NCBI GenBank assembly: GCA_001661245.1
Contig: KV454015.1
Coordinates: 62,001 to 125,395, forward strand
DNA: 63,395 nucleotides
Direction: 5' to 3'
Origin: Pachysolen tannophilus NRRL Y-2460
Taxonomy: Eukaryota
Shown here: piece by piece, positions 844-41,700 of the stretch
How positions within the stretch are numbered: the first letter of the stretch is position 1
Layout of the letters: the number at the start of each line of letters is the position of its first letter
Translations under genes and position numbers: made by a program
The notes under the pieces: model-generated
The model's input: only the letters and a program-made list of their open reading frames with translations
Told to the model about the DNA's origin: nothing
The model's database searches: none

Positions 844-2574
844 CTAAATAATCGGAGCAGCTGTTTCAGTGTATTCTACACCATCACCGGTCACATTATA
901 TTTTTTATTCACATAGTCGTCAATATCCACAACGTCATTTGGAACTTTAAAGAACTTGTTTTTCCAGAATCCGTCAGAATCCAATATTTCTTTGTTAACC
1001 AATTTGTAGTGACCCAATTTTGGTAAAACCAAGGCCCAAATGACCCAATAAACGAATCCTACAAAGAAAACACCCCAAGCAGCAACACAGTGGGTCCAGT
1101 ATGGCATACTAGTGTATACTGATTGTCCGTCATCAGGTGGAATATATGGAGCAATCACCAAGTATAATGATGCTAATGCGAAAAAAAAGGTAACGATAAT
1201 TGGTGATCTGATTGGTGGTTTCCATTCTATTTCTCCTCTATGAGCTCTGAAATGCAACCATAATAAACCTATAGCCACAAAGAAATTAATAATATTTAAT
1301 GGATATGAAATCAAGTTTAAAACAAAATTATAAGCATCTCCCAGGGGTGGTGCTACAATAGTGATAACACAAATTAACCAATGTTCGAATAATCCCACAA
1401 ATGGTGAATTAAATGGTCTTTGAGTAGCAAAAAGTTTGGAAAATGGTAAAACACCTTCACGACCCAATTGTTGAACAATTCTACCTTGTGAAAAGATAAC
1501 AGACATGACATTACCTAAGGCTGAAAGAGCAACAAATACAGAAATAGCCTTTTGAGCTTTTGTTCCAAAAGCAATTTTGAAAAAATCTGCAGCTATAATT
1601 TGACCCGAAGATGAAATAACATCTTTTGGTATAACTGCAAAATAAGCAATGTTAACAAACATATAAATAATTGATATAACAACTAATGCAGCAGGAGCAG
1701 AGTATTTTAAAGCTCTAACAGGGTCTTTAACTTCACTTAAAGAATAATTAACATTTGAGTATCCAATATAAGACCAAATAACGTTATATAATGCTGTGAC
1801 AATACCATAGCCAGTTGGTTTAGAACCAGAAAATGCATCAGAGAAATTGTGAGTCGGTTCATAAGTACCAGTCTTAAGACCTCCACCTAAGGCGACCCAT
1901 CCAGTTACAGAAATAACAATAATAACGGCAACTTTGAAAACACCCAATAAATTTTGTAAATACATTCCAGCTGTTACATTGACTCCATGAACCAAAAATG
2001 CAAATGAGACACATGCAATACCAATACCACGAGATGCCCATTCAGTATCATCTTTACCAGCTGCAAGTAAAATATATTCACCAAACACCACAGAGTTACC
2101 TGCTGCCCAACCTAATAATAAAATGTAAACTGCATACATACAAGTAACCATAAATTTTGGTTTCTTATATATAAATTCCAAATAATTTTTTTCTCCTCCA
2201 TTTCTTTGAAGTTGCCTTATTGGATATGAACCAAAACTAGCATAAACAAATAATCCAGCCATTGCAATAAGTGCACCAACAAACCATAAAATTAAACTTG
2301 TTCCTACAGAACCGGATAAAGTGAAAATTGTACTAGAAGTACTAAAAATACCTGTACCAACAATTCTATTTGTTACTAAGAAAACTGCAGATATATAACC
2401 AATCCTTCTTTCACCATGATCTAACTTTATTTCATCCACATTTCCTTCTTCTTTATTAGAAGAATCGTCATAACTAATATCACGCTCTTCAATTGTTTGA
2501 ATATCCGCCAAATCTCCAACAGATGTATTTGTTTTAGATGAGCTGAGCCAACTTTTTACTCCCAGAACACCCAT
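844..2574 (-). CDS. MUP1: APC-family methionine permease (Mup1-like)
   Basis: 576 aa with many TM segments, NRIVGTGIF in TM1, the GGEKNYLE motif and YSYIGYSN. Confidence 0.8.
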   Translation of the reverse strand: MGVLGVKSWLSSSKTNTSVGDLADIQTIEERDISYDDSSNKEEGNVDEIKLDHGERRIGYISAVFLVTNRIVGTGIFSTSSTIFTLSGSVGTSLILWFVGALIAMAGLFVYASFGSYPIRQLQRNGGEKNYLEFIYKKPKFMVTCMYAVYILLLGWAAGNSVVFGEYILLAAGKDDTEWASRGIGIACVSFAFLVHGVNVTAGMYLQNLLGVFKVAVIIVISVTGWVALGGGLKTGTYEPTHNFSDAFSGSKPTGYGIVTALYNVIWSYIGYSNVNYSLSEVKDPVRALKYSAPAALVVISIIYMFVNIAYFAVIPKDVISSSGQIIAADFFKIAFGTKAQKAISVFVALSALGNVMSVIFSQGRIVQQLGREGVLPFSKLFATQRPFNSPFVGLFEHWLICVITIVAPPLGDAYNFVLNLISYPLNIINFFVAIGLLWLHFRAHRGEIEWKPPIRSPIIVTFFFALASLYLVIAPYIPPDDGQSVYTSMPYWTHCVAAWGVFFVGFVYWVIWALVLPKLGHYKLVNKEILDSDGFWKNKFFKVPNDVVDIDDYVNKKYNVTGDGVEYTETAAPII

Positions 2575-3565
2575 ATTCTTTAACTATATAAGTTTCCAAA
2601 AATTTTATGAAACCTCTTTTATTTGATTATTAACTACTCGAAAAAAAAAATTTAATAAGTCAGCTTTCTGGTATTTATATGAACCACATAAAAGAAGCTT
2701 AAAAAGTGAAAAATATGTACTGTGGCTCATCGAGTAAAACCTTAACGGTAAACTGTATAAAGTTTTTCTTTTTCCTTTACCGTTTTTATTTTTCTTTTTC
2801 TTTTTTTCTTTTTTTAACTCTGTTCTAACTCTGCTAGTAATTGCCAACCTGAGAAGAGATTCGTTTAAATGATGCAAGTAAAAGAATGCCTCGTTACCTC
2901 TTCCTCATCATGCTGCAAAAAAAAAAAATTTTTTTCCCCATTAAGTTTCTTTTTTTTTTCACGAACTTAAATAGAAGAGGTCATCGGTAAAAAAATTTTT
3001 TTAACATTCTTCAAGAAGAGTTGCAAGTTAATTCATGCACTTTACATATGGCTGATCTTTCAGAAGAAGCCACCACTTAAATAATTCTTGTGATTTGATT
3101 CAGTTTTAGTCAAATGTTTTAACACATTTCGTCTGTTTTCAACCATAGAAGACCTAGATGCAGCTTAAAGTTTCAAGGCATTCTTCTTTGTAAGATGCGG
3201 CTAAAGAATCGCCGTTTGTAAGTCGTCATTTCTCGAGACAAAGTGAAATAATCAGCAATAAATATATCATCGATGCTTCAGCTACAGTTATAGTTACAGT
3301 TACAGTTACAACTACAGCTTCGAACAACTTGTAAAGATGGTTCTAAGCGAATACCATTATTATCTATTAATAATGTTTTTACCTAGCTCACGAGATGTTT
3401 GAAAAAAAATTTTTTCTAGGTGTTTGTATGTAGTATGTAGTATATGCGCTTTGATGATTAATACTTCTTCACAGGAAACTAGTTTACGGACACAAATAAT
3501 TTTTCCGGAGATTCCTGCAATAATCATGTAAAAAGGTCAGCAGCTACAACATCTCCCAACTAAAA

Positions 3566-3636
3566 GCGCAAATGGTTTAGTGGTAAAATCCAACGTTGCC
3601 ATCGTTGGGCCCCCGGTTCGATTCCGGGTTTGCGCA
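3566..3636 (+). tRNA. tRNA-Gly(GCC)
   Basis: GCGCAAATGGTTTAGTGGTAAAATCCAACGTTGCCATCGTTGGGCCCCCGGTTCGATTCCGGGTTTGCGCA. Acceptor stem GCGCAAA/TTTGCGC, anticodon GCC, B box GGTTCGATTCC, followed by a T-run terminator. Confidence 0.98.
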
Positions 3637-3864
3637 TTTTCTTTTTTAATTTATTTAATTTTTAAAAATATTATTAATATTATTGTTATTATCATTTTTC
3701 CAATTTCCACTGTGGAAATATGCAGTCTTTATACTGTGTGTGTGTTCTGCCGATAATATACAAATATAAGACCATTCATTGTCTTTTTCTTTTTTTGGGT
3801 TGTGAAATTTATCTTATTTGAAGTATGAGCTGAATTTAAAAAATTGATTATCATTTGTATTTAG

Positions 3865-5226
3865 ATGCTGTTGAAAATTCCGAAATTTAAGAGAATCGCA
3901 ATTGTTGGTGCAGGACCTTTTGGACTAGCTGCAGCTAGAGCGTTATCTGAAGAATCAAAATTTTACAAGTTTGATAAGATTACTCTTTATGAGAAGACGT
4001 CTAAAGTTGGTGGTTTATGGAACTACAATAAGGATGAAAAAAAGGGTGATGATGTTTCGCCAATGTATGAATTTTTAGAGACTAATATACTATGTGAGAT
4101 TATGAGGTATAATAATCATCCTTTTGCAAATGAAAATGAAATTACATTTCCTCCAAGAGAACATGTTCTGAACTATTTAAAAAGCTATGCTGATAAATAT
4201 ATAAATACTGATAATATCACAATGTCATTCAATAGTAAAGTTGAATCTGTTGTGAAGAAAAATCATCTTGAGTGGGAAGTTGTTTCTACCAATTTGTTGA
4301 CAGGTGTAGTTTCTACAGAATTATTTGATGCAGTTGTCATTGCTAACGGTCATTTTGAGAAGCCATATATTCCAAAAGTAAACGGATTAGATAATTGGGA
4401 TTCTGATTGTATTATTCATGCCAAAAATTTTAAAAATGCTGATGATTACAAAAATAAGCTGGTATTAATTGTAGGAGATTCATCAAGTGGCGTGGATATA
4501 TCTACGCAATTAATTACTACTGCCAAGATCATATATGTTAGTTACAATTGTTCTTTAAGTGAGGTTGAAACAACGAAATCCAATGAGAATAAATTCATCA
4601 AGAGATTGGGAAAAATTATTAAATACGATTATAATGATGGCAGATCTATTATAACAGTGGATGGTGATAATATTAAAGATATTGATAATATTATTTTTTG
4701 TACTGGCTACTTGTATCATTTACCATTTTTGAATTTGTATAACAAACCAGATGATCCTTACCACTTATTAGATTCTAACTGTGATAGAGTTTATAATTTA
4801 TATAAACAATTCATCTATATTCCTGATCCTACATTATTTTTATTAGGCTTACCAATGAATGTTATTCCCTTTTCATTTGGTGAATCACAATCTGCGATAA
4901 TGGTCAGATTGTTGAGTGGTAGATTATCTTTACCAACAAAGAAAGAAATGTATCAAGATTTAGCCAATGAGGAAAAAAAACATGCAGAGATGGGGGTTTC
5001 TTATCATCAACATGCAAAACTTCTTGACGTAGAATATTGTAAAGATTTACAACTGTGGATAGATGAATCAGGAACTCACAAAGGTTTTAATGCTGAAATT
5101 TGGGACAAAGATAGAACTGAACTTCGAAAAAATACTGCAGCTATTAAAAATGAAAGACTAACTCGAATTACAAGTCATGCTTTAAAGTTAAGGCAGAATG
5201 GTGAAAGTTTCAAGTTACTTCAATAG
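3865..5226 (+). CDS. FMO1: Flavin-containing monooxygenase (Fmo1-like)
   Basis: GAGPxG FAD motif, GGLWNY, ANGH, the IIHAKNF FMO motif, second Rossmann motif VGDSSSG, and FCTGY. Confidence 0.88.
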   Translation: MLLKIPKFKRIAIVGAGPFGLAAARALSEESKFYKFDKITLYEKTSKVGGLWNYNKDEKKGDDVSPMYEFLETNILCEIMRYNNHPFANENEITFPPREHVLNYLKSYADKYINTDNITMSFNSKVESVVKKNHLEWEVVSTNLLTGVVSTELFDAVVIANGHFEKPYIPKVNGLDNWDSDCIIHAKNFKNADDYKNKLVLIVGDSSSGVDISTQLITTAKIIYVSYNCSLSEVETTKSNENKFIKRLGKIIKYDYNDGRSIITVDGDNIKDIDNIIFCTGYLYHLPFLNLYNKPDDPYHLLDSNCDRVYNLYKQFIYIPDPTLFLLGLPMNVIPFSFGESQSAIMVRLLSGRLSLPTKKEMYQDLANEEKKHAEMGVSYHQHAKLLDVEYCKDLQLWIDESGTHKGFNAEIWDKDRTELRKNTAAIKNERLTRITSHALKLRQNGESFKLLQ

Positions 5227-5454
5227 ATACGATTTTCCTTTAAAAGGAATATTGAAATATATATACATATATATATATATATATAATGTATGAAATTAGT
5301 TTAGAAAAAAGAAAAAAAATTAAAAAACAAAGGAAAAAAATATATGATATAAACTCCCACCAAGTGTTGAACCAAGAATAATCATAGACATACTATACCT
5401 ATGTATTATGTATCATTTCAAATAAAACCCTGAGCCAGAGCTAAAAATAATAAA

Positions 5455-5495
<41 letters not shown>

Positions 5496-5609
5496 ATAAA
5501 TATAGGAGTTCATATATCAAGAAAGGTTGCAAAAAGATCCCCGCCAACCGACATTCAAAAAACAAAAACCATCAGTTTTAAAAAAAAAAAAAAAAATATA
5601 AAAAAAAGA

Positions 5610-6257
5610 TTAATATTTATCACCGATCAAGCCAACTGTAGAAATCAGGAAAGCAAAACCAATAATACCTGTGATAATTTTATAATTGTATTGAACTTTC
5701 TTCAAATCCAAAGTTGCTTCTTTTTTTATTATAGCATGAGCAACTTCATCTTCAACGTCTCCTTCATCTTCATCTTCCTGTGAAGTGCTACTGGCGATAT
5801 CCTGGTAGATGGAGTTATCCAAAGATGATTGAAATTCTTTTTTCTCCTTTGATCCATCATTTTTTTGATTTTTTTTCTTTAAAGTTGGGATAGCAGCTTC
5901 TTTTTCCTTTATAGCAAGTAATTTTTTTTCAACTGAGAAATTTTTAAACAGATAATAAACAAGACTAATTGGAAATCCAACTGCTGCATAAATTAAATAA
6001 GGATGTTGACCTCTTGTTGGAGATTGGAAAAAACCTAATAATAATGAACTAGTTGCTAATGAACCAAATGAAAGTAACAGGAACCTAGCTTTATAAATCA
6101 ACCCAATAATTGCATTAGCAAAATTTGTTACTGAATACTCATCATTTTTAGAAATCAAATTTGGTAACAGCTTCAACGAAATTATACCGGCAGTACCAGT
6201 TGCAAGACCTAATGAAGCAGTCCCAATGACTTTAATTGTTGTAATACATTTACCCAT
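5610..6257 (-). CDS. ATG33: Atg33/Scm4-family mitochondrial outer membrane protein
   Basis: ATG at 6257 (MGKCITTIKVIGTASLGL), QHPYLIYA motif and a C-terminal TM helix. Divergent from ILV5, as ATG33/ILV5 are in S. cerevisiae. Confidence 0.8.
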   Translation of the reverse strand: MGKCITTIKVIGTASLGLATGTAGIISLKLLPNLISKNDEYSVTNFANAIIGLIYKARFLLLSFGSLATSSLLLGFFQSPTRGQHPYLIYAAVGFPISLVYYLFKNFSVEKKLLAIKEKEAAIPTLKKKNQKNDGSKEKKEFQSSLDNSIYQDIASSTSQEDEDEGDVEDEVAHAIIKKEATLDLKKVQYNYKIITGIIGFAFLISTVGLIGDKY

Positions 6258-7219
6258 TATGAACTCCACAACAATAACAATAATAATAAGAACTTAAAAC
6301 AACAAGTAAATAAAAAAAAAAAAAAAAAAAAAATTTTACGATAAATTTAATATGAAAATTGTCCAATAAAGAAATTCTTAGTTCACGAAATGATTATTAT
6401 TCTGATATCTTGAACAATATTTATATAAAATATTTATACAAGATAATAATGATGATAGTGATAAAACAAGATTTAATACTATTCAGAGGCGCACCTTACT
6501 TACAATTTAGGCTCTGTGGAACAACTAAATATTTTAATAGAAATTTAATGACACGTAAACTCTTGTATAAAGGAGACTTGCGGACGAAAGCCGGTGAGAA
6601 ACAGGCCAAAAAAACAAAAGAGAAAGAGAAAGAGACAGGAAAAAGAAAGAGAAAAAAAATCTGCCATTTGCTTTTTCTTTTATTACGTACTTTTGATATA
6701 TTACAAACGACTGTTGTGTTTTTTGCACTACTTTATTTTTTAATTTTAATGCGCACTACCATTCAAATAGTGGTTCTTGCACTACTGTTTGATTTCCAAT
6801 TTTCCAATTTTCCACTACTTGCTTTTGTATATATATATATAATGCAGGTATTAAACTAAGTAACCAACTAAAATAGTACGAAACAAGATTAAACAAGACT
6901 CTTTCCATAAAATAAACTTTTTCTTACTATTTATTGTTTTAAAAATGCTCCGAACATCCAGTAGTCATTCTTTCTAAATAATACCGTAAAATGGATTCTG
7001 AAATCATTATTGTAGTTTTAATCAATACTTAGTGGTGCCGTTAGTCGTGCCGTTAGTCGTGGCGCCGTGCTGGAGCTTACCACTTTTTGCTCCGACTTGC
7101 CTGCGACTTGCCTGCAAACGGCCTGTGAGCGGCCTGTCAACGGCCTGCGTAAATCCAGTACTGAATCATACGTCAACATTCGACGGGCCTGTAATAGGAG
7201 AACTCTTTTTTTTTTTCTT

Positions 7220-7226
7220 TGACTCA
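7220..7226 (+). promoter_or_regulatory. Gcn4 binding site (TGACTCA) upstream of ILV5
   Basis: Perfect TGACTCA after a poly(T) tract, about 220 bp upstream of an amino-acid biosynthesis gene. Confidence 0.65.
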
Positions 7227-7446
7227 TTGAAATTTTTCACTTTTTTTTTTTTTCGTCTCTTCGATGATTTTGACCACTGTAGTTTCTTCAATATATATTT
7301 CACACCATTCCCCATAAGGTTATTATTAGCTTTAATTTTTTTTTTTTCTTTTTTTCTTTTCTTCTTCTTTTTTTTCTTTGATTTATATACAATTGTATTG
7401 ATTTAATATCTTATACTTTAGAAAAAAAAAGAATACTAAAATAGAA

Positions 7447-8667
7447 ATGTCATTTAGAAGTAATTCTATCAAATTAGTACGTGCTGCTGTTGCTGCTAAC
7501 TCACGTGTTGGCTCTGCTCCATCAAGAAGAGCTTTGTCAGCTTTGGCTTCTGCTGCTGCTTCTCGTCCATCTGTTGCAAAGTCAGCTTCAGGTGTTGCTC
7601 CATTGGTTGCATCAAGAGGACTTAAAACTATTAACTTTGGAGGTGTTGAAGAAATTGTTCATGAAAGAGCTGATTGGCCAAGAGAAAAATTATTAAACTA
7701 TTTTAAAGATGATACTTTAGCCTTAATTGGTTATGGATCTCAAGGTTATGGTCAAGGTTTAAACTTGAGAGATAATGGTTTAAATGTTATCATTGGTGTT
7801 AGAAAAGGTGGTAAATCATGGGAAGCTGCTCAAGCTGATGGTTGGATCCCAGGTGAAAATTTATTTGATGTTAATGAAGCTATTAAAAAGGGTACAATTG
7901 TTATGAATTTATTATCAGATGCTGCTCAATCTGAAACTTGGCCATCAATTAAACCTTTATTAACAAAAGGTAAAACTTTATATTTCTCACATGGATTTTC
8001 TCCAGTTTTTAAAAATTTAACAAAAGTTGATCCTCCAAGTGATATTGATGTTATCTTGGCTGCTCCAAAAGGTTCAGGTAGAACTGTTAGAAGTTTATTC
8101 AAAGAAGGTAGAGGTATTAACTCTTCTTACGCTGTATGGAACGATGTCACAGGTAAAGCTGAAGAAAAAGCTATTGCCTTGGCAGTTGCTATTGGTTCTG
8201 GTTACGTTTACCAAACCACTTTTGAAAGAGAAGTTAACTCTGATTTATACGGTGAAAGAGGTTGTTTAATGGGTGGTATCCATGGTATGTTCTTAGCTCA
8301 ATACGAAGTTTTAAGAGAAAATGGACACACCCCATCAGAAGCTTTCAATGAAACCGTCGAAGAAGCTACTCAATCCTTGTATCCATTGATTGGTAAATAC
8401 GGTATGGATTATATGTACGATGCTTGCTCAACCACTGCTAGAAGAGGTGCTTTGGATTGGTACCCAAGATTTAAAGATGCTTTGAAACCAGTCTTTGAAG
8501 ATTTATATGAATCCGTCAAGAACGGTACTGAAACACAAAGATCTTTGGATTTCAACTCTCAATCTGATTACCGTGAGAAATTAGAACAAGAGTTATCTAC
8601 AATTAGAAACATGGAAATCTGGAGAGTTGGTAAAGAAGTAAGAAAGTTACGTCCAGAAAATAATTAA
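7447..8667 (+). CDS. ILV5: Acetohydroxyacid reductoisomerase, mitochondrial
   Basis: Mitochondrial presequence, GYGSQG, SHGFS, SDLYGERGCLMG, CSTTARRG and strong codon bias. Confidence 0.98.
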   Translation: MSFRSNSIKLVRAAVAANSRVGSAPSRRALSALASAAASRPSVAKSASGVAPLVASRGLKTINFGGVEEIVHERADWPREKLLNYFKDDTLALIGYGSQGYGQGLNLRDNGLNVIIGVRKGGKSWEAAQADGWIPGENLFDVNEAIKKGTIVMNLLSDAAQSETWPSIKPLLTKGKTLYFSHGFSPVFKNLTKVDPPSDIDVILAAPKGSGRTVRSLFKEGRGINSSYAVWNDVTGKAEEKAIALAVAIGSGYVYQTTFEREVNSDLYGERGCLMGGIHGMFLAQYEVLRENGHTPSEAFNETVEEATQSLYPLIGKYGMDYMYDACSTTARRGALDWYPRFKDALKPVFEDLYESVKNGTETQRSLDFNSQSDYREKLEQELSTIRNMEIWRVGKEVRKLRPENN

Positions 8668-13906: not shown

Positions 13907-14215
13907 CTAGACTTTATTTCTTCAGAAATAGTACATGCAAATGTATCTGTAGGTACCAATATCTAAAGCTAATTGTAAAAATTTAGCAGTTCTCTTTTTA
14001 TAACCTACTAAATCGTTAGTTCTGTAGTGTTAGTACCGTACTGTTAGTACTGTACACCAGCTACTCCCCGCTTGTTTTCTCCTTTCTCCGCCAAATTCCC
14101 TAGAAGTAAATTGTAAGCGTTGCAGCCGACGCCCTTTGTTTTTTGAAAATATAAGTGCAGCGGAAAACCCCGTTCAGCGTAGTGAAAATGGGATTTTTCA
14201 AGGAAAAAATATATT

Positions 14216-14222
14216 TTAGTAA
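14216..14222 (-). promoter_or_regulatory. Yap1-type site (TTACTAA) upstream of catalase
   Basis: TTAGTAA on the + strand about 350 bp upstream of the catalase ATG. Confidence 0.45.
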
Positions 14223-14567
14223 TCACCAACAAAAAAATTTATATGGTTTCTGCAGCAGTTCAGCGGAAAAATTAAGTGAGGATTTAGCGAAGATTCAGTG
14301 AGGACATAATCTAGTAGAAACGGGATATTCATACGTTGCTCTTTTATTTTCCTCTCTGGGGAAGAAGGTATCATTCAACTTTCCAGAGAGAGATATGAGT
14401 ACGTTGAGTTCGCTGCACTTGTTGGCCTACAAAATGTATAAAATGTATAAAATGCCTGTAGAAGTTTTCTTTTATTTTTTTTTTTTTCTGATTTCATAAA
14501 ACTTTTATTTTCAATAGTTTAAAGTCAAGTGTTTTATCACTTATTTTGCCTTTATTTTTTTTGAAAA

Positions 14568-16112
14568 ATGGCTGATAAAAAGATTCCTCCGGTTATGACC
14601 ACCAGCCAAGGCTGCCCTGTATCAGACCCTTTTAAGACTCAGAGAGTTGCAATTGATACTTCTGACTATAAGCATCTGCAACCACCACAAGGGCCATTAC
14701 TCCTCCAAGATTTTCAATTGATAGATGCATTGGCTCATTTTGATAGAGAGAGAATTCCTGAGCGTGTTGTTCACGCTAAAGGTGCGGGAGCATTTGGTGT
14801 TTTTGAAGCTACAGATGATATTTCCGATATTTGTAAATCTAGTTTTTTACAAAAGGGTAAAAGGACTAGAACTTTGACCAGGTTTTCTACAGTTGGTGGT
14901 GAAAAGGGATCTGCTGATACTGCAAGGGATCCAAGAGGTTTTGCTACAAAATTTTATACCGAAGAAGGTAATTTAGATTTTGTATACAATAATACTCCAG
15001 TTTTTTTCATTCGTGACCCTATTAAATTCCCACATTTTATTCATACACAAAAGAAAACCCCGCAAAAAAACACCATGGATGGTAATAATGCCTTTTGGGA
15101 TTATTTGACTACAAATCCAGAATCAATTCATCAAGTTATGGTATTATTTTCTGATAGAGGAACGCCTGCGTCTTATCGAAAGATGAACGGTTATTCGGGC
15201 CACACTTATAAATGGTATAATGCCAAAGGTGAATGGCACTATGTTCAAGTCCACATGATGTCAGACCAAGGTGTTGAGTCCTTAACAGTAGAGCAAGCTG
15301 CTAAACATGCTGGTGAAGACCCTGATTTTATCACTCTGGACTTATTTGATAACATTGAAAAGGGAAACAACCCTTCTTGGACAATGTATATCCAAACAAT
15401 GACTTTAGAAGAGTCTAAAAAATTGCCCTTTTCAGTATTTGATTTAACTAAAGTTTGGCCACATTCTCAATTCCCATTAAGAAGATTTGGTAAATTAACT
15501 CTTAATGAAAATCCTAAAAATTATTTTGCAGAAATTGAACAAGCTGCTTTTTCACCATCTCATACTGTTCCTGGTATGGAGGCATCTTTTGATCCTGTTT
15601 TACAATCTAGGTTGTTTTCATATCCTGATACTCATAGACATAGATTGGGCACAAATTATAATCAAATCCCAGTGAATTGTCCTTTAAAATCAGGTGTTTT
15701 TAACCCAATAATCAGAGATGGCGCAATGACGGTAAATGGTAACATGGGTTCACATCCAAATTACTTGGCAACTCAGTGCCCAGTTACATTTGCTAAGGCA
15801 TTAATTCCTGCAAAGGAAGCTTCCACAGCTACAATAGGTGGTTTAGGTGAGGAAAAACATACAGGTGAAGTTGTACCATTCCATTGGACAGTCACGGATT
15901 ATGATTTCGTTCAACCAAGAGCTTTATGGAAAGTCTTGGGAAGGCAATCGGGACAACAACGTAATTTCATTCATAACGTTGCAGTTCATATTGCAAATTC
16001 TAGACCTGACATCCAAGAAAGAGTTTATGACTATTTTAGTAAAGTTTCTAAGGAAATTGGTGAAGGTATTAGAAGAGAAGTTCAAGGTATATCCAGTAGA
16101 GCAAAATTATAA
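14568..16112 (+). CDS. CTA1: Peroxisomal catalase
   Basis: FDRERIPERVVHAKG active site, RLFSYPDTH heme-ligand motif and C-terminal PTS1 -AKL. Confidence 0.96.
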   Translation: MADKKIPPVMTTSQGCPVSDPFKTQRVAIDTSDYKHLQPPQGPLLLQDFQLIDALAHFDRERIPERVVHAKGAGAFGVFEATDDISDICKSSFLQKGKRTRTLTRFSTVGGEKGSADTARDPRGFATKFYTEEGNLDFVYNNTPVFFIRDPIKFPHFIHTQKKTPQKNTMDGNNAFWDYLTTNPESIHQVMVLFSDRGTPASYRKMNGYSGHTYKWYNAKGEWHYVQVHMMSDQGVESLTVEQAAKHAGEDPDFITLDLFDNIEKGNNPSWTMYIQTMTLEESKKLPFSVFDLTKVWPHSQFPLRRFGKLTLNENPKNYFAEIEQAAFSPSHTVPGMEASFDPVLQSRLFSYPDTHRHRLGTNYNQIPVNCPLKSGVFNPIIRDGAMTVNGNMGSHPNYLATQCPVTFAKALIPAKEASTATIGGLGEEKHTGEVVPFHWTVTDYDFVQPRALWKVLGRQSGQQRNFIHNVAVHIANSRPDIQERVYDYFSKVSKEIGEGIRREVQGISSRAKL

Positions 16113-20374: not shown

Positions 20375-20458
20375 TTCATTTATTTATTAATTTTATTTAT
20401 TTAGATTGAAACTACATTCACGTTTTATGAAACGAAAAAAAAAAAAATTTTTTTTGAT

Positions 20459-20579
20459 AGATTGCAGCACCTGAGTTTCGCGTATGGTCTCCCACTACAC
20501 TACTCGGTCAGGCTCTTAGCAGCTTAACTACAGTTGATCGGACGGGAAACGGTGCTTTCTGCTAGATATGGCCGCAACC
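20459..20579 (-). rRNA. 5S rRNA, dispersed copy
   Basis: Reverse complement is GGTTGCGGCCATATCTAGCAGAAAGCACCGTTTCCCGTCCGATCAACTGTAGTTAAGCTGCTAAGAGCCTGACCGAGTAGTGTAGTGGGAGACCATACGCGAAACTCAGGTGCTGCAATCT (121 nt), near-identical to yeast 5S. Confidence 0.98.
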
Positions 20580-22822: not shown

Positions 22823-23005
22823 AGTTAATTAAATACGATTAATTAGAAAAATAAATAAATATATAAAACCAAAAGAATTTTAATCTCTTTCTCTTGCTTT
22901 TAATTACCTTAAGTTAGCTACTGGCGGGAAACCAGAAGTAGTGCACTCTTAACTCAAGCAACCGAATTAGGTAATTACACAAGAAAAAAACACGACAAAA
23001 TGTCA

Positions 23006-23049
23006 CAGCCCCTAAGTTTTTTTTCCAAAAAAAAACTAAACAGGGGCTG
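23006..23049. promoter_or_regulatory. Inverted repeat in the RPS9 promoter (Tbf1-like paired sites)
   Basis: CAGCCCCT(23006-13)...AGGGGCTG(23042-49) enclosing T8/A9 tracts. Resembles the paired TAGGGCT sites of non-Saccharomyces RP promoters. Confidence 0.4.
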
Positions 23050-23341
23050 CTATGGTAAATAAATATCAACTGAAAAACTGGGGCTGGATGGTTTAATTTT
23101 AATTTTAAATTTTTTTTTTGGACTTCTATCCGTACTGAAATATTCATTACATCCTATACGTTTGTAGTGCCCAAACGCAGTAAATTACAGAATTGGACGA
23201 AATGAAATCAAAAAAATTTTTCAAACAAAAATTTTTCAAACAAATTTTTCAGTATATAAAATAAACATTTTTTTCCCTTTTTATATTTCAATAAGTTTTT
23301 TTTTCTTTCTTTGTGAATTAAATAGTACTGATCAATTGAAG

Positions 23342-24394
23342 ATGCCAAGTATGTATTAAATGATTACTAAGAACAAATATGATGAAGTAATTAAGAACAT
23401 GACATGTCCATTATAATGATTATAACAGTGACTGTTCATGGAGGTTCGGGTCCTCAAAGAATATCGACATGATATTATATTAGAAGAAAACTATTAAGTT
23501 TTATTGCACTGAATTCCCGACACTTCAGTTGCAAAAAAACCATTTATGGTTTTGTCCAAAGTGAAAAAGGAGAAAAGAAAAGAAAAGAGATGTACGAGAT
23601 TCTATGCGTTGTCGTTAAATTTCTTTTTCTTTTCTTTTTTTTTCTTGAACTATTTGGACAAACCATTATTTGTTTAGTATCTTCTAGTAAAATATCTGTA
23701 GGTAATTAATCTTTGAGTCTAATCTCTATTTTATCTTTATTCTATTGTTTTTTCTAATTCAATATTGAAATTTGAAACTAACAAGATTTTCTCTTTTTTT
23801 TATGTTTAATTAGGAGCTCCAAGAACTTACTCCAAGACTTACTCTGTCCCAAAACGTCCTTACGAATCTGCTCGTTTGGATGCTGAATTAAAATTGGACG
23901 GTGAATATGGTTTAAAAAATAAACATGAAATTTACAGAATTGGTTTCACTTTATCTAAAATTAGAAGAGCTGCTAGAGATTTATTAACCAGAGATGAAAA
24001 AGATCCAAAAAGATTATTCGAAGGTAATGCTTTAATTAGAAGATTAGTTCGTATTGGTGTCTTATCTGAAGATAAGATGAAATTAGATTATGTCTTGGCT
24101 TTAAGAATTGAAGATTTCTTGGAAAGAAGATTACAAACCCAAGTTTTCAAATTAGGTTTAGCTAGATCAATTCATCACGCTAGAGTCTTGATCACTCAAA
24201 GACATATTGCTGTTGGTAAACAAATTGTTAACATTCCATCTTTTATGGTTAGATTAGATTCACAAAAACATATCGATTTCGCTCCAAACTCCCCATACGG
24301 AGGTGGAAGACCAGGTAGAGTTAAGAGAAGAAACCAAGCAAAGGCTGCTGAAGCCGCTAACGAAGGTGGTGAAGAAGCTGAAGAAGAAGAGTAA
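23342..24394 (+). CDS. RPS9: 40S ribosomal protein uS4; exon 1 23342-23348, intron 23349-23813, exon 2 23814-24394
   Basis: ATGCCAA|GTATGT...AACTAAC...TAG|GAGCT splices to [29 protein letters not shown]; the remainder is typical S9. Confidence 0.97.
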
Positions 24395-24701
24395 ATTATT
24401 AACGGCGCTTAATCATTTTGTTTTGTTTTGTTTTTTTTTGTTTTTTTTTGAAAGGGCATGTTTTGTTTTATTATTTTTCATTTTTTTTTTGAATCTTTAT
24501 ATATATATATTTATAAAAGACGAGAAAAAGAGAAAAGAAATAGATTTCAAAAAATTTTTTATTTTTATAAAAATTTGGATATTTGGATTAACGTATTAAA
24601 TTATATTGTAGTTATAATAGCTTTAATCTTCTTATTCTTATTACTATAGTAAAGATAGTTGGTACTAATTAAATTATTATTAGGTATAAAGTAGTGTGTG
24701 A

Positions 24702-24848
24702 AGTGTGCAAAACGGTTCAAGGATGTATGTGGTTTCAACCATTAGAGCGGGTTCCGGGATTCGCTGGCTCTCGGTTTCTCAAGCTAAAGTCCTGGCAGGT
24801 TGTTGGGCTCTCTGCCGAACTCCGGCGAGTTCACACTCTTTTTTTTTT
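24702..24848 (+). ncRNA. Candidate structured non-coding RNA, unidentified
   Basis: GC-rich island with abutting helices, G-U pairs that work only on the + strand, upstream TATAAA (24685-90) and a T10 run (24839-48). Confidence 0.55.
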
Positions 24849-25198
24849 GTTGATACGGTTTAACTCTATATAGGGTACACAACCCTAAATGTAAATGTAA
24901 TTTCATACTTTAGTTCTATTAATTTCTAGTATTTCCAAAATAGGAAATACTATTCTTTACTACTTCTAACATATCTCAAAAAATGTGACAGTGAAAAATT
25001 ACTCATACAAAAACATTGGTTTGGTTCAGAAAACACGACTTTCTTTAATTTATTTCTTTTCTCATCAAAGAAAGGAAAAAAAAAATTTACACCAAAAACC
25101 TTTCAGGGAAGAAGAAATACCTTGGTACACAATTTGTATATTATTAATATTTTTTAATAAAAAAAAAAAAAAAAAAAAAAAAAGAGTTTTAATTTTAA

Positions 25199-25792
25199 NN
25201 NNNNNNNNNNNNNNNNNNNNNNNNNNNNNNNNNNNNNNNNNNNNNNNNNNNNNNNNNNNNNNNNNNNNNNNNNNNNNNNNNNNNNNNNNNNNNNNNNNNN
25301 NNNNNNNNNNNNNNNNNNNNNNNNNNNNNNNNNNNNNNNNNNNNNNNNNNNNNNNNNNNNNNNNNNNNNNNNNNNNNNNNNNNNNNNNNNNNNNNNNNNN
25401 NNNNNNNNNNNNNNNNNNNNNNNNNNNNNNNNNNNNNNNNNNNNNNNNNNNNNNNNNNNNNNNNNNNNNNNNNNNNNNNNNNNNNNNNNNNNNNNNNNNN
25501 NNNNNNNNNNNNNNNNNNNNNNNNNNNNNNNNNNNNNNNNNNNNNNNNNNNNNNNNNNNNNNNNNNNNNNNNNNNNNNNNNNNNNNNNNNNNNNNNNNNN
25601 NNNNNNNNNNNNNNNNNNNNNNNNNNNNNNNNNNNNNNNNNNNNNNNNNNNNNNNNNNNNNNNNNNNNNNNNNNNNNNNNNNNNNNNNNNNNNNNNNNNN
25701 NNNNNNNNNNNNNNNNNNNNNNNNNNNNNNNNNNNNNNNNNNNNNNNNNNNNNNNNNNNNNNNNNNNNNNNNNNNNNNNNNNNNNNNNNNNN
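25199..25792. other. Assembly gap (N run)
   Basis: 594 Ns. Confidence 1.
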
Positions 25793-26044
<252 letters not shown>

Positions 26045-26312: not shown

Positions 26313-27431
26313 ATGAGCCATAAACAAAGTCAGGGAGGAAGTCAAGGACAAAATCAAGGTCAGAGATTCCAAAATTTGGAACAAGATATTGAAGCATCGA
26401 TAAATGATCTAGGTAGTGATGAAAAAGCATTAAGCTTTAATAGATCAGATATAATAACTGAAACAAAAAAAATTCCACAAAAAGAGATTAAACCATGGGT
26501 TCATTTTGTTGCAGGTGGTATAGGAGGCATGGCAGGTGCTATATTCACTTGTCCATTGGATGTTGTTAAAACAAGATTACAATCAAGTGTTTATAGAAAT
26601 GCATATAAATCAACTTATACATCTTCAAATATTTTTCTTCAACTGACTGGCCATTTAAAAGAAACTTGCTCAATAATATATAATGTTTATCAAATAGAAG
26701 GTGTTAGATCTTTATTTAAAGGTTTAGGTCCAAATTTAGTTGGTGTTATCCCAGCAAGATCAATAAATTTTTTCACTTATGGATTGGGTAAAGATTTCTT
26801 GGTTCATAATTTCTTTAATGGACAAGAAAATTCATTGGTACATTTACTTGCAGCAGTTAATGCAGGAATTGTTACTTCAACAGCAACAAACCCGATATGG
26901 TTGGTCAAGACAAGATTACAATTGGATAAAAATACATCAAAAGAGTATAAAAATTCTTTAGATTGTATTAAAAAAGTTCTTAAACAAGAAGGTATTGCAG
27001 GATTATATAAAGGATTAACTGCTTCATATTTAGGTTCTGCCGAATCAACTTTACAATGGGTCTTGTATGAACAAATGAAAAGAATGATTCATCAAAGATC
27101 TCTTAGGCATGAACTGTCTGGGAATAAACGTACAAATTGGGATTCATTCATGGAATGGGGTGCAAGATCAGGTGCTGCAGGTGCAGCCAAATTCATAGCA
27201 AGTATTATTACTTATCCACATGAAGTGATACGTACAAGATTGAGACAAGCTCCTTTAAAAGAAGGAAATAAACCTAAATATACTGGGTTGATGCAATGTT
27301 TCAGATTGGTTGTCAAAGAAGAAGGCTTACTGTCAATGTATGGTGGATTAACTCCACATTTAATGAGAACCGTTCCTAATAGTATCATTATGTTTGGAAC
27401 ATGGGAAATTTTTACAAAGTTGTTGTCATGA
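26313..27431 (+). CDS. RIM2: Mitochondrial pyrimidine nucleotide carrier
   Basis: Three Px(D/E/W)xx(K/R)TRL carrier repeats; KPWVHFVAGG, NPIWLVKTRLQLD and GLTPHLMRTVPN. Confidence 0.94.
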   Translation: MSHKQSQGGSQGQNQGQRFQNLEQDIEASINDLGSDEKALSFNRSDIITETKKIPQKEIKPWVHFVAGGIGGMAGAIFTCPLDVVKTRLQSSVYRNAYKSTYTSSNIFLQLTGHLKETCSIIYNVYQIEGVRSLFKGLGPNLVGVIPARSINFFTYGLGKDFLVHNFFNGQENSLVHLLAAVNAGIVTSTATNPIWLVKTRLQLDKNTSKEYKNSLDCIKKVLKQEGIAGLYKGLTASYLGSAESTLQWVLYEQMKRMIHQRSLRHELSGNKRTNWDSFMEWGARSGAAGAAKFIASIITYPHEVIRTRLRQAPLKEGNKPKYTGLMQCFRLVVKEEGLLSMYGGLTPHLMRTVPNSIIMFGTWEIFTKLLS

Positions 27432-38329: not shown

Positions 38330-41300
38330 ATGTCTAAAAGAAATCTTGACCAGGATGTGGATGAAGGTGGTGAGGTAGAGGTAAATGGTAATGGTAATGG
38401 TGGTGGTGGTGTGGATGGACAAGATGTTCTGTTGGATATTTCTGAAATCCATGTTTTGGAAAAATTTACACAAGCGAATGGAGGTAATCGTTACAAGAGA
38501 ACTAAGAGAGAAAGGATTGAAGTTGAGGATAACGATGAAGATGAAGAGGAAGAAGATGGGATGGACACTTTAGCTCCAGCTTTGGCAGGGATAATTGAAA
38601 AAATTGAATTAACAAATTTTATGTGTCATGATCATTTTGAGGTTGAATTTGGACCTCAAATCAATTTTATTATTGGTCATAACGGTAGTGGTAAGAGTGC
38701 TATACTTACAGCAATATCTGTCGGTTTAGGAGCTAAGGCAAATGAAACCAACCGTGGATCATCTTTGAAAAGTTTGATCAAAAATGGAAGTAGTTCTGGT
38801 AGGATATCAATCACCATAAAGAATGAAGGTCCTTCAAGTTATAAACGAGAAATATTTGGTAAAAAAATTATAATACAAAGAATTTTGAAAAGAGAAGGTA
38901 CAAATAATTATTATATTAAAAGTGAAACTGGTAAAACAGTCTCTAATAAGAAAACTGATTTGGATTCGATATTGTCCAGATTTTCAATAACTGTTAATAA
39001 CCCAATGGCAGTATTGACTCAGGATGATGCAAAATCATTTTTAGCCACTGCCTCAGATAGAGAAAAATATAAATTTTTTATGGCTGGTACAAAAACTGAT
39101 GATACCATCAATAATTATTCTATGACTGAAGAAGAAGTTGAAAAAGTTAAAGAAAAATTGTTGGAATTGAAAGAAGAAATAGGAGAGTTAAAAGCTGATG
39201 ATCAAAAGGCTAAAAGTATTTATGACAAGTATCAAGCTTCTGAACATTATCAGGAAATGAAAAACTTGATTGAAGGAAAATATTTATGGGTCCAAGTTGT
39301 TGAAAACGAGGAGAAAATCAAAGCAACAAATGACAAGATTCAACAATTCAAAGAAGAAATTCAAGCTGCACAAAATCACATTGAAAATAATAAAATTGAA
39401 ATTAAAAATTGCGAAGAGAAAAAAACAAAAATCACCGAAGATTTTGCAAATCATAATAATGAAGTAACTGTTTTAGAAGGACAAAGAATGGAGATAAGAG
39501 ATCAGCTTAGTAAGGCCGCTGCAAATTTAAAAGCAATGGAAAATGAGAAAAAATTAATTGAGGTTGATATGAAGAAAAACGACGAAAAAATTACGAAATT
39601 TAAAGAAGATCTGAAAGTAGAACAAACAAGAATTGACAAAATTAATGGTGGATCTCACGAAGAATTGGAAAAACAGAAAAATGAAATATCTGCTGAAAGT
39701 TCTTTAACTGAAGTGAAACTGAAAAATATTAGAAATGAAAAAGAAGTTTATAAAGAGGAAGCTGCGACGCGCATTGTTGAAATTAGAGAACAAATCGAGA
39801 CTGAAAAAGCAAAAGAAATTAATATTACAAATAGATTGAGATCGATACAATCGTCTAAAGCAAAAGAGTTAGATGCGTATGGACATCAAATTTATAACAT
39901 CTTAGATGCAGTGGAGAGAGATCCTGGATTCAAGTCTAAGCCCATTGGTCCACTTGGACGCTATATAAGTATCAAGCAAGGTGAAGAAAAGTGGAGTCAA
40001 CTTTTAGAGGCAACCCTCAAAAGTGCATTAGAAGCTTTTGTTGTTGATAATAGTCATGATTTTAATAGACTTTCTACTCTTTTCAGAAGACACAAGCATA
40101 CGGCAAATATTGTGATAAGAAAAAGCGAGATTTTTGATTATAGTCAAAAATCTGCAAGCGCAGATTTTAAAAGGGTTATGGATGTCTTGGAGATTTCTAA
40201 CAAATATGTTGAGTGTATTCTTGTTGATATGTGCAGAGTTAACAGGATTTTGTTGATAGAAGATAGATCTAAGGCAGAATCTATTGCAAGATCTAACAAT
40301 CGTAATGTTCATAGTATTCTTGTCCCTTTCGATTTCAGGAGTGGTAATAGTATTAGAATAAATCAATACGGAGGTTTGCAGGTAAACGTTATAAATTTTC
40401 CTTACAATAAGATGGATAAGCTTCGTTCAAGTGGTTCTACGGTACAAGAGGTTGAGAGATATCAAAAACTTCTCAATTCAACCAGGAGGAGCTTATTAGA
40501 GTTAGAATCAAAGAGAAAAAAATTCAGCAAGAGGACGACGAAAAGATAAAACTGTTTGATCGAGAATTGAAACTGCTTGTTAATAAACAATCACAGTATG
40601 ATCGCCATATTTTTGAAATAAATAATAAATTGCTGGAGTCTGCAAATACTGGTCATTTGGAATCTTTGAAAGAACAAATTGAAACTCTAACACAGCAAAA
40701 TATGGTTAATAGACAAACGATTGAAGAGGCAAATTTTGAAAATCAAAAGCACTATTTGGAATATCAAAAGTTGGATGAATCTTTTGCAGAGATCAACAGG
40801 AAAATCCAAAAACTTAAAAATAGTAATGATAAAGTTAATAATAAGTTGACCGAATACCAGAGTTTAATAGACACTAAGATTAACGAAATTAATCACTATA
40901 ATAAATCAATTAATAAAAGAAATGTGTTAATTGAAAAATGTGAACAATATATCGAGGGAACATCTACAGAAATTGGAAAATTGATTGCCAACGCTGAAGA
41001 TCATTGTTCTAGAGAAGATGCAGATCTTAAAGAAGAAGATACATTAGACACTATTCGTAAACAGAGAGAACGCATAAGCCAAGAGGTTGCCCAAATTGAA
41101 CAAGAATTAGGAATGTCCAGCGAGGAAATTATCAATCGAATGCAGATAGCAAGATTGAAGTTTAATCAAGCAAAAGAGAAAATTTCCCAAGCTTCAATCT
41201 TACAGAATAATCTACGTCAATCACTAACAGACAGATTAACAACTTTTTTGGAAGTTCGTGATAACTTATGCATCAAAGTCAACGAATCGTTCCAAAGCAG

Positions 41301-41700
41301 TCTTCAATTGAGGAATTTCACAGGAAAAATTGAATTTGACCATAAAGAGCAACGCTTAAAGATGTTAGTCTCAACAAAAGATGGTGCCGAATTGAGAAGC
41401 GTTGAATCTTTTAGTGGTGGTGAAAAATCTTTTGCTCAGATTGCCTTATTGTTAGCTATATGGCAGCAGATGAATACTAAAATACGTGGTTTGGATGAGT
41501 TTGATGTTTTTATGGATCAGATTAATAGAAGGTTGTGTTTGAAATTGATATTACAAAAACTTCGTGGATATGCTTCGAAATCCCAAACAATATTTATAAC
41601 CCCATTAGACATCGCTGGATTGGATGGTGTAGATCAAGGTGATGTACATATCCATAGAATAGTTGATCCTAGGAGAAGTGTGAACTCCAATAATCCTTAG
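38330..41700 (+). CDS. SMC6: Smc5/6 complex subunit Smc6, split by one apparent -1 frameshift at 40516-40522
   Basis: The N-half has NFMCH, GHNGSGKS and a PIGPLG hinge; the C-half has FSGGEKSF and LDEFDVFMD. Adding one A to the A7 run joins the two ORFs. Confidence 0.93.

Follow-up and report, generated by a model that had tools for sequence, protein, structure and literature searches.

The window analysed here is a stretch of 63,395 nucleotides from the yeast Pachysolen tannophilus NRRL Y-2460 (contig KV454015.1). It is very AT-rich, with a GC fraction of 0.30 overall and 0.26 in non-coding DNA, and the proteins it encodes are most similar to those of budding yeasts. Pfam families and protein matches give the gene order GDT1 family, cwf18-like, RPS9, a GC-rich island, a gap of Ns, a RIM2-like carrier and Med8, with ATP synthase subunit b two open reading frames (ORFs) beyond Med8 (the features around the island are collected in Table 1). 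The RPS9 gene contains an intron of 464 nt, spliced RPS9 contigs from relatives align to 23816-24398, and the island starts about 300 nt downstream of the stop codon (24392-24394). In the promoter of RPS9 (22900-23350), three AGGGGCTG-type words, one of them inverted, are arranged round T8/A9 and are followed by T10 and then by TATATAAAA. The RIM2-like carrier gene (26313-27431) has its best match, at 74% identity, among unnamed Logan proteins, and its product is 64-71% identical to proteins of Komagataella, Cyberlindnera, Wickerhamomyces, Kuraishia and Pichia. Between the two genes, the right side of the spacer (25159-26041) is made up of A25, an N gap at 25199-25792 (594 nominal bases) and about 250 bp of pure (TA)n, and no ORF of at least 40 aa was found between 24910 and the gap at 25199. 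The nearest gene start to the right of the island is that of RIM2 at 26313, about 1.47 kb away and past both the N gap and the (TA)n stretch. Elsewhere in the window, two adjacent + strand ORFs (38330-40549 and 40702-41700) both match SMC_N/AAA_23 and are probably one RAD50/SMC-like gene split by an intron, a frameshift or a sequencing error.

Table 1. Features in and around the spacer between RPS9 and RIM2, in positions of the window
Feature	Position	Strand	Remark
RPS9 (uS4)	23343-24394	+	exon 1 ATGCCAA 23343-23349; intron 23350-23813; exon 2 23814-24394 including stop
TATAAA	24685-24690	+	2 nt ahead of the island
GC-rich island	24692-24838		147 nt, from composition
5' domain, AGGAT/GTCCT helix around two hairpins	24720-24793	+	in the minimum-energy fold; z only -0.66
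Two abutting hairpins, GGCAG...CTGCC and GAACTC[CGGC]GAGTTC	24794-24832	+	z -1.36 (+), -2.96 (-)
T10 run	24839-24848	+	0 nt beyond the island end
TATATAG and palindrome TAGGGT-N5-ACCCTA	24865-24887		the only TAGGG-N(2-12)-CCCTA in the window
Perfect 10-bp inverted repeat with CC(A/T)6GG core	24927-24952		from repeat search

The GC content of the island is 0.524, whereas flanks of equal length have 0.163 and 0.245. Across the non-coding 100-nt windows (n=17,073), the mean GC content is 0.270 with a standard deviation of 0.091, and the island peaks at 0.58. Only five non-coding clusters in the window reach a GC content of at least 0.50, and the island ranks second among them by peak. Given this difference from both the flanks and the 17,073 non-coding windows, the compositional anomaly is real, and an earlier reading made from the sequence alone, which had described a GC-rich island of about 140 nt in AT-rich DNA, was borne out on this point. 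The other four clusters are the tRNA gene, the 5S gene and two regions 230-360 nt upstream of ILV5-like (KARI) and catalase ORFs, so that a GC island in this genome is about as often an RNA gene as an upstream region. In its GC content (0.52), the island matches the window's own 5S (0.52) and tRNA (0.55).

Several of the other non-coding clusters have features of their own. The strongest of all, at 6977-7231 (peak 0.63), contains three tandem direct-repeat units of 9-12 nt in 2-4 copies each, and lies 230 nt upstream of the ILV5-like (KARI) ORF at 7447; it ends directly in T13, as the island next to RPS9 ends in T10. The one at 13992-14330 (peak 0.50) carries a recurring CAGCGGAAAA-like word, and the catalase ORF at 14568 follows 240-570 nt downstream of it. 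The 5S gene (20435-20579, - strand) is a lone copy between protein genes, outside any rDNA unit, with a T13 run 11 nt past its end. Unlike the two islands upstream of genes, the island next to RPS9 yielded no family of internal direct repeats.

The island is framed by TATAAA on the left and T10 on the right, both of which the sequence-only reading had taken for Pol III-type signals. Both are indeed there, but on the + strand of the 19,890 non-coding bases of the window TATAAA occurs 46 times (about 2.3 per kb) and runs of at least 10 T occur 40 times (about 2.0 per kb), and the pair is thus weak evidence for Pol III. The T10 run is longer than the at least 5-6 T of a Pol III terminator and could be such a terminator or a promoter-type poly(dT) tract. 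Within the island, the + strand is free of any T run of 4 or more. A yeast 5' splice-site word, GTATGT, is found inside the island at 24725-24730, where it overlaps an ATG, and a TTCTAAC word and a CAG follow about 240-270 nt beyond it; the frame discontinues, and this splice-like arrangement is probably due to chance.

The island does not appear to encode a protein. Two + strand frames run open through it, for 66 and 53 codons, which is unremarkable at 52% GC. None of the five frames tested showed any Pfam family at E<=10, and a search of the 66-residue frame against 1.84 billion representatives returned a single chance-level match (E 1.2e-4, over 25 aa of an 1858-aa protein). The open + strand frames thus have no coding relatives, in agreement with the earlier remark that no convincing ORF is present, and the same two results rule out a relic of RPL21 in the island.

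The proposal of a structured RNA had been built on a set of abutting helices, and every one of these helices is present in the sequence. They comprise AGGAT (24720-24724) with GTCCT (24789-24793), GGCAG (24794-24798) with CTGCC (24812-24816), the hairpin GAACTC[CGGC]GAGTTC (24817-24832), and the closing pair of AGTGT (24702-24706) with ACACT (24833-24837); two further hairpins are TGGT[TTCA]ACCA (24730-24741) and, at 24746-24765, AGCGGGTT and GATTCGCT around a CCGG loop, with three G-U pairs. The energy of the fold is a different matter. A fold of 146 nt on the + strand has -45.4 kcal/mol, a value equalled or bettered by 45 of 200 dinucleotide shuffles (z -0.69), and across eight choices of ends, with 300 dinucleotide shuffles each, z ranged from -0.12 to -1.49 on the + strand and from -0.10 to -2.96 on the - strand. 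Compared with shuffled sequence, therefore, the + strand folds no better than chance (z -0.1 to -1.5). The long versions of the - strand gave z of -1.2 to -1.9, as good as or better than the + strand. Because the + strand is G+T-rich, its shuffles also fold at lower energy. The three G-U pairs had been held to imply transcription of the + strand; this argument is not decisive, given that the - strand forms a separate helix of 12 pairs, also with G-U pairs, and has equal or better z.

Controls from the same window put these values into perspective. The 5S rRNA gave z of -1.55 and the tRNA-Gly -2.17, whereas the two islands upstream of genes gave +0.08 to +1.10; beside these controls, the island had z of -1.0 (+ strand) and -1.7 (- strand). 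Because the island falls between the promoter islands and 5S, the fold test discriminates poorly in this case. The helices form about as well in shuffles of the same composition, and the island thus carries no clear fold signal. Moreover, with RNA genes and upstream regions about equally represented among the GC islands, helices that abut one another have no weight by themselves where the sequence is 52% GC.

Known RNA families were sought with the 4227 covariance models of Rfam 15, at gathering scores on the window and at E<=10 on a 651-nt piece (24450-25100). At gathering scores, the whole window yielded only the 5S rRNA (20459-20579, - strand) and the tRNA-Gly (3566-3636); at E<=10, the piece yielded seven weak matches, none of which overlaps 24690-24850. 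The assertion that the island belongs to no known RNA family thus held in Rfam, down to E<=10. In particular, Rfam found neither sequence nor structure in the island that matches U6, RNase P or SRP RNA. Resemblances to the Alu-like 5' end of SRP RNA, to an RNase P CR-I-like word, to U4/U5 and to a telomerase template received no support from Rfam. No tRNA was found in the island by either ARAGORN or Rfam, and ARAGORN recovered the window's tRNA-Gly.

For snoRNAs, the defining motifs can be checked directly. Box C/D snoRNAs carry a C box (RUGAUGA) and a D box (CUGA) near their ends, and H/ACA snoRNAs have an H box between their two hairpins and an ACA placed 3 nt short of the 3' end, with the pseudouridylation pocket 14-16 nt above it. 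The island resembles these classes in that its size is in their range and that, as had been pointed out, an ACA on the + strand is followed by just three more nucleotides of the GC-rich body (ACA at 24833-24835, then CTC, then T10). However, neither strand of 24690-24850 contains CTGA, RTGATGA or TGATG, and the H box, ANANNA, is absent from the + strand of the same segment, which excludes both C/D and H/ACA snoRNAs on the + strand. Furthermore, the + strand ACA at 24833 directly follows a hairpin of 6 bp with a 4-nt loop and without a pocket.

The island was also compared with the small RNA genes that Pol III transcribes in budding yeasts. TFIIIC binds an A box of the consensus TRGCNNAGTGG and a B box of the consensus GGTTCGANNCC. 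At 24714-24724 on the + strand, the island has a tRNA-type, B-box-like word, GGTTCAAGGAT, that lacks the final CC, and a full A box was not found in or near the island. GGTTCRA words number 12 in the window and lie mostly in coding DNA. With its TATA-like element, its GC-rich body on the 120-150-nt scale and its T run, the island is like SNR6 (U6) and like RPR1 and SNR52 with their leader promoters; it differs from these genes in that an A box is missing and the B box is partial, and it is a candidate for such a gene.

Relatives of the island were sought in several collections. No second copy was detected by blastn in the 63-kb window. A covariance model (R1) built from the structure in the sequence-only reading was run on the window and on 43 of 80 metagenome RPS9 loci, these 43 having been chosen by eye and the other 37 being mostly shorter or of higher GC; it found the island itself and a single 7-bit match, in locus L060. 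An exact 35-nt core had no match in metagenome contigs, and an exact 25-nt core had none in prokaryote genomes. When all 80 metagenome RPS9 loci were searched by blastn, there were four matches of at most 50 nt (E 0.087-4.5), and nothing island-like. In L001, the most similar of the yeast-like loci (87% identity), the gene upstream of RPS9 is not the one seen in the window but a DNA-polymerase-like ORF, and the 540 nt left after RPS9 show no GC island. Because the nearest relatives of this yeast are distant, the negative outcome says little on conservation. Within the window, 9-mers common to the island and the RPS9 promoter are no commoner than for other spacers.

To the right of the T10 run, the sequence has a different character. 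The palindrome TAGGGT-N5-ACCCTA next to TATATAG resembles what we take to be a site for a TTAGGG-binding factor, and the inverted repeat with the CC(A/T)6GG core resembles, presumably, an MCM1/SRF-type site; both sites are predicted. Because it combines TATATAG with two putative protein-binding palindromes, this stretch resembles a promoter on at least one of its strands. For the - strand of 24836-25000 the fold has z -2.35, which is mostly an effect of the two palindromes. A telomerase template was considered for AACCCTAAA at 24881-24889 and rejected, this word being half of the palindrome and having no Sm-type site after it.

Given these observations, we tentatively favour, at somewhat less than even confidence, the interpretation that the island acts at the level of DNA in the spacer between RPS9 and RIM2 and not as a folded RNA. 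Under this interpretation, the island would be a GC-rich block of nucleosome size, bounded by T10 and with TATATAG and the two palindromic sites less than 100 nt further on, within a promoter or boundary region, and its helices would be a by-product of its G+C-rich composition. We infer that it would bind factors or position a nucleosome, and hence act on chromatin, between the highly expressed RPS9 gene and a transcription unit to the right. This interpretation is favoured by the lack of a clear fold signal, by the location of two of the window's GC islands upstream of genes and by the promoter-type motifs to the right. Moreover, the GC content is well above the intergenic background (0.524 against 0.27), as in a promoter region. 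Against it stand the distance to the nearest gene start, the lack of direct repeats, and edges at TATAAA and T10 that look like those of a small transcription unit.

One candidate for the transcription unit to the right is RPL21, lying in the N gap with the island as part of its promoter. The YBR187W-YBR193C and YPL081W-YPL078C blocks of S. cerevisiae show a like gene order, with RPL21 between RPS9 and RIM2. This candidate is weakened by three fungal metagenome contigs in which RPS9 adjoins a RIM2-like gene, in tandem in L080 and convergently in L054 and L078. In L080, where the pair is found at 2501-5715 and the RIM2-like carrier gene has several introns, the spacer between RPS9 and RIM2 is 1.3 kb long, and none of its 19 ORFs has any Pfam family, L21e included; nor did the L21e family turn up when 30 of the larger ORFs downstream of RPS9 in other loci were tested. 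Given the adjacency in the three contigs, the neighbourhood of RPS9 and RIM2 seems to be old. A unique gene within a gap that is bounded by simple repeats would not be the likeliest case.

The strongest competitor of the DNA-level interpretation, which we consider possible but doubtful, is a Pol III-like gene on the + strand for an orphan small RNA that would be restricted to this lineage and belong to no known yeast RNA class. In such a gene, TATAAA would serve as the -30 element, transcription would start near 24715 or at the left edge of the island, and a body of about 125-145 nt, made up of the 5' domain and the two hairpins, would end in T10 with a U tail. The edges of the island coincide with TATAAA and T10 as this gene would have them; TATAAA and T10 are, however, common in the genome, and the window's own 5S and tRNA genes are both followed by T runs, as the island is, but neither has a TATA at -30. 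The GC content also agrees with that of 5S and tRNA, the absence of internal T runs of 4 or more on the + strand suits a Pol III transcript, and no gene is seen close enough for the island to regulate. The B-box-like word points in the same direction, although it lacks the CC and is accompanied by no convincing A box. As for folding, z of -1.0 to -1.5 comes fairly close to the -1.55 of true 5S, but the fold is no better than chance. Above all, there is no Rfam match at E<=10, neither a second copy nor a relative turned up in the window or in the metagenome and prokaryote collections searched, and the exclusion of every testable known yeast small-RNA class, the essential ones among them, means that the RNA would have to found a new class. 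Orphan structured RNAs are rare and GC-rich control regions are common.

An unlikely origin of the island is a young insertion or the remnant of a mobile element, for example a short solo LTR or a MITE-like unit, which would have yet to decay towards the AT-rich background. LTRs typically end in TG...CA. The island has such TG...CA ends, imperfect inverted repeats at its termini (TGTGTGAA at 24695-24702 and TTCACAC at 24830-24836) and a composition foreign to the surrounding DNA. However, no target-site duplication is visible, neither blastn nor the covariance model found a second copy in the 63 kb, the 25-35-nt cores had no exact match in the metagenome or prokaryote collections, and 141-147 nt would be very short for an LTR.

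Still less probable is a snoRNA-like RNA transcribed by Pol II from the - strand and driven by the block of TATATAG and palindrome to the right of the island. Read on that strand, the palindromes, TATATAG, A10 and the island follow one another in this order, the z values (-1.4 to -1.9) are slightly better than those of the + strand, and an ACA at 24697-24695 lies just past a possible closing stem. This strand, however, has neither C/D boxes nor an Rfam match. ANANNA is found on it at 24735, at 24697 and within or next to the A run; when the strand is drawn as an H/ACA RNA, the ACA falls 17 nt below the upper stem, against the 14-16 nt of the rule, and H-box matches next to the hairpin are confined to the A run.

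Finally, we give very little credence to a cis-acting, autoregulatory structure in the 3' UTR or a read-through transcript of RPS9 that would be bound by uS4: the island is on the same strand, 300 nt past the RPS9 stop, and uS4/S4 autoregulation is known, but the structures proposed for RPS9 autoregulation are placed in the intron by Plocik and Guthrie (2012, PMC3315480), yeast-type poly(A) signals (T-rich, then TATATATATA) occur at 24416-24520, well ahead of the island, and no match to the Rfam SSU rRNA models suggests mimicry. Among 22 matching sequencing runs from 8 studies, four from a single sample contain 0.93 of the sequence words and are probably the source DNA. Contigs of relatives, obtained from 4 of the other 18 runs, which have small shares, cover 23400-24419 and none of the 13 bins across 24420-25190; the RPS9 mRNA contigs in these four small-share runs stop near the stop codon, which speaks against the 3' UTR structure, but they come from other species and are uninformative on expression.

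The interpretation of the island as a DNA element can be set against two well-described systems. In S. cerevisiae, ribosomal protein gene promoters enriched for Hmo1 have intervening regions with 48.6% GC on average, compared to 36.1% in Hmo1-limited promoters, according to Kasahara et al. (2011, PMC3105432). Like these promoters, the island is GC-rich, on the scale of 100-200 bp, next to a ribosomal protein gene and adjoined by a T tract and putative factor sites. The placement is different, in that the intervening regions sit between the upstream activating sequence and the core promoter of a known gene, whereas the island is downstream of RPS9, with no gene start seen within 1.4 kb.

The second system is the GC-ACS class of replication origins in Komagataella (Pichia) pastoris, which are described by Liachko et al. 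(2014, PMC3945215) as having a 20-bp GC-rich motif with a TYGAAC core and poly(dA) 10-35 bp upstream; the article links the motif to an Hsf1 site. The island, too, is intergenic and GC-rich, the two yeast lineages are related, and its one TYGAAC, a TTGAAC at 24720 on the - strand, lies in the reverse complement of the B-box-like word at 24714-24724. However, there is no poly(dA) within 35 bp upstream of this TTGAAC, A10 being about 120 nt away. In addition, from their sequences we read the 10 wild-type GC-ARS fragments in part 1 of Table S4 of that article as reversed tRNA genes, in which the TYGAAC core would be the B box; the island, by ARAGORN and Rfam, is not a tRNA.

As a DNA element, the interpretation that we tentatively prefer, the island would be one more GC-rich intergenic control or boundary block and, as such, ordinary. 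If it were an RNA gene instead, a yeast lineage that has almost no RNA annotation would gain an orphan Pol III-type RNA, and GC islands would then be a usable route to RNA genes in AT-rich yeast genomes.
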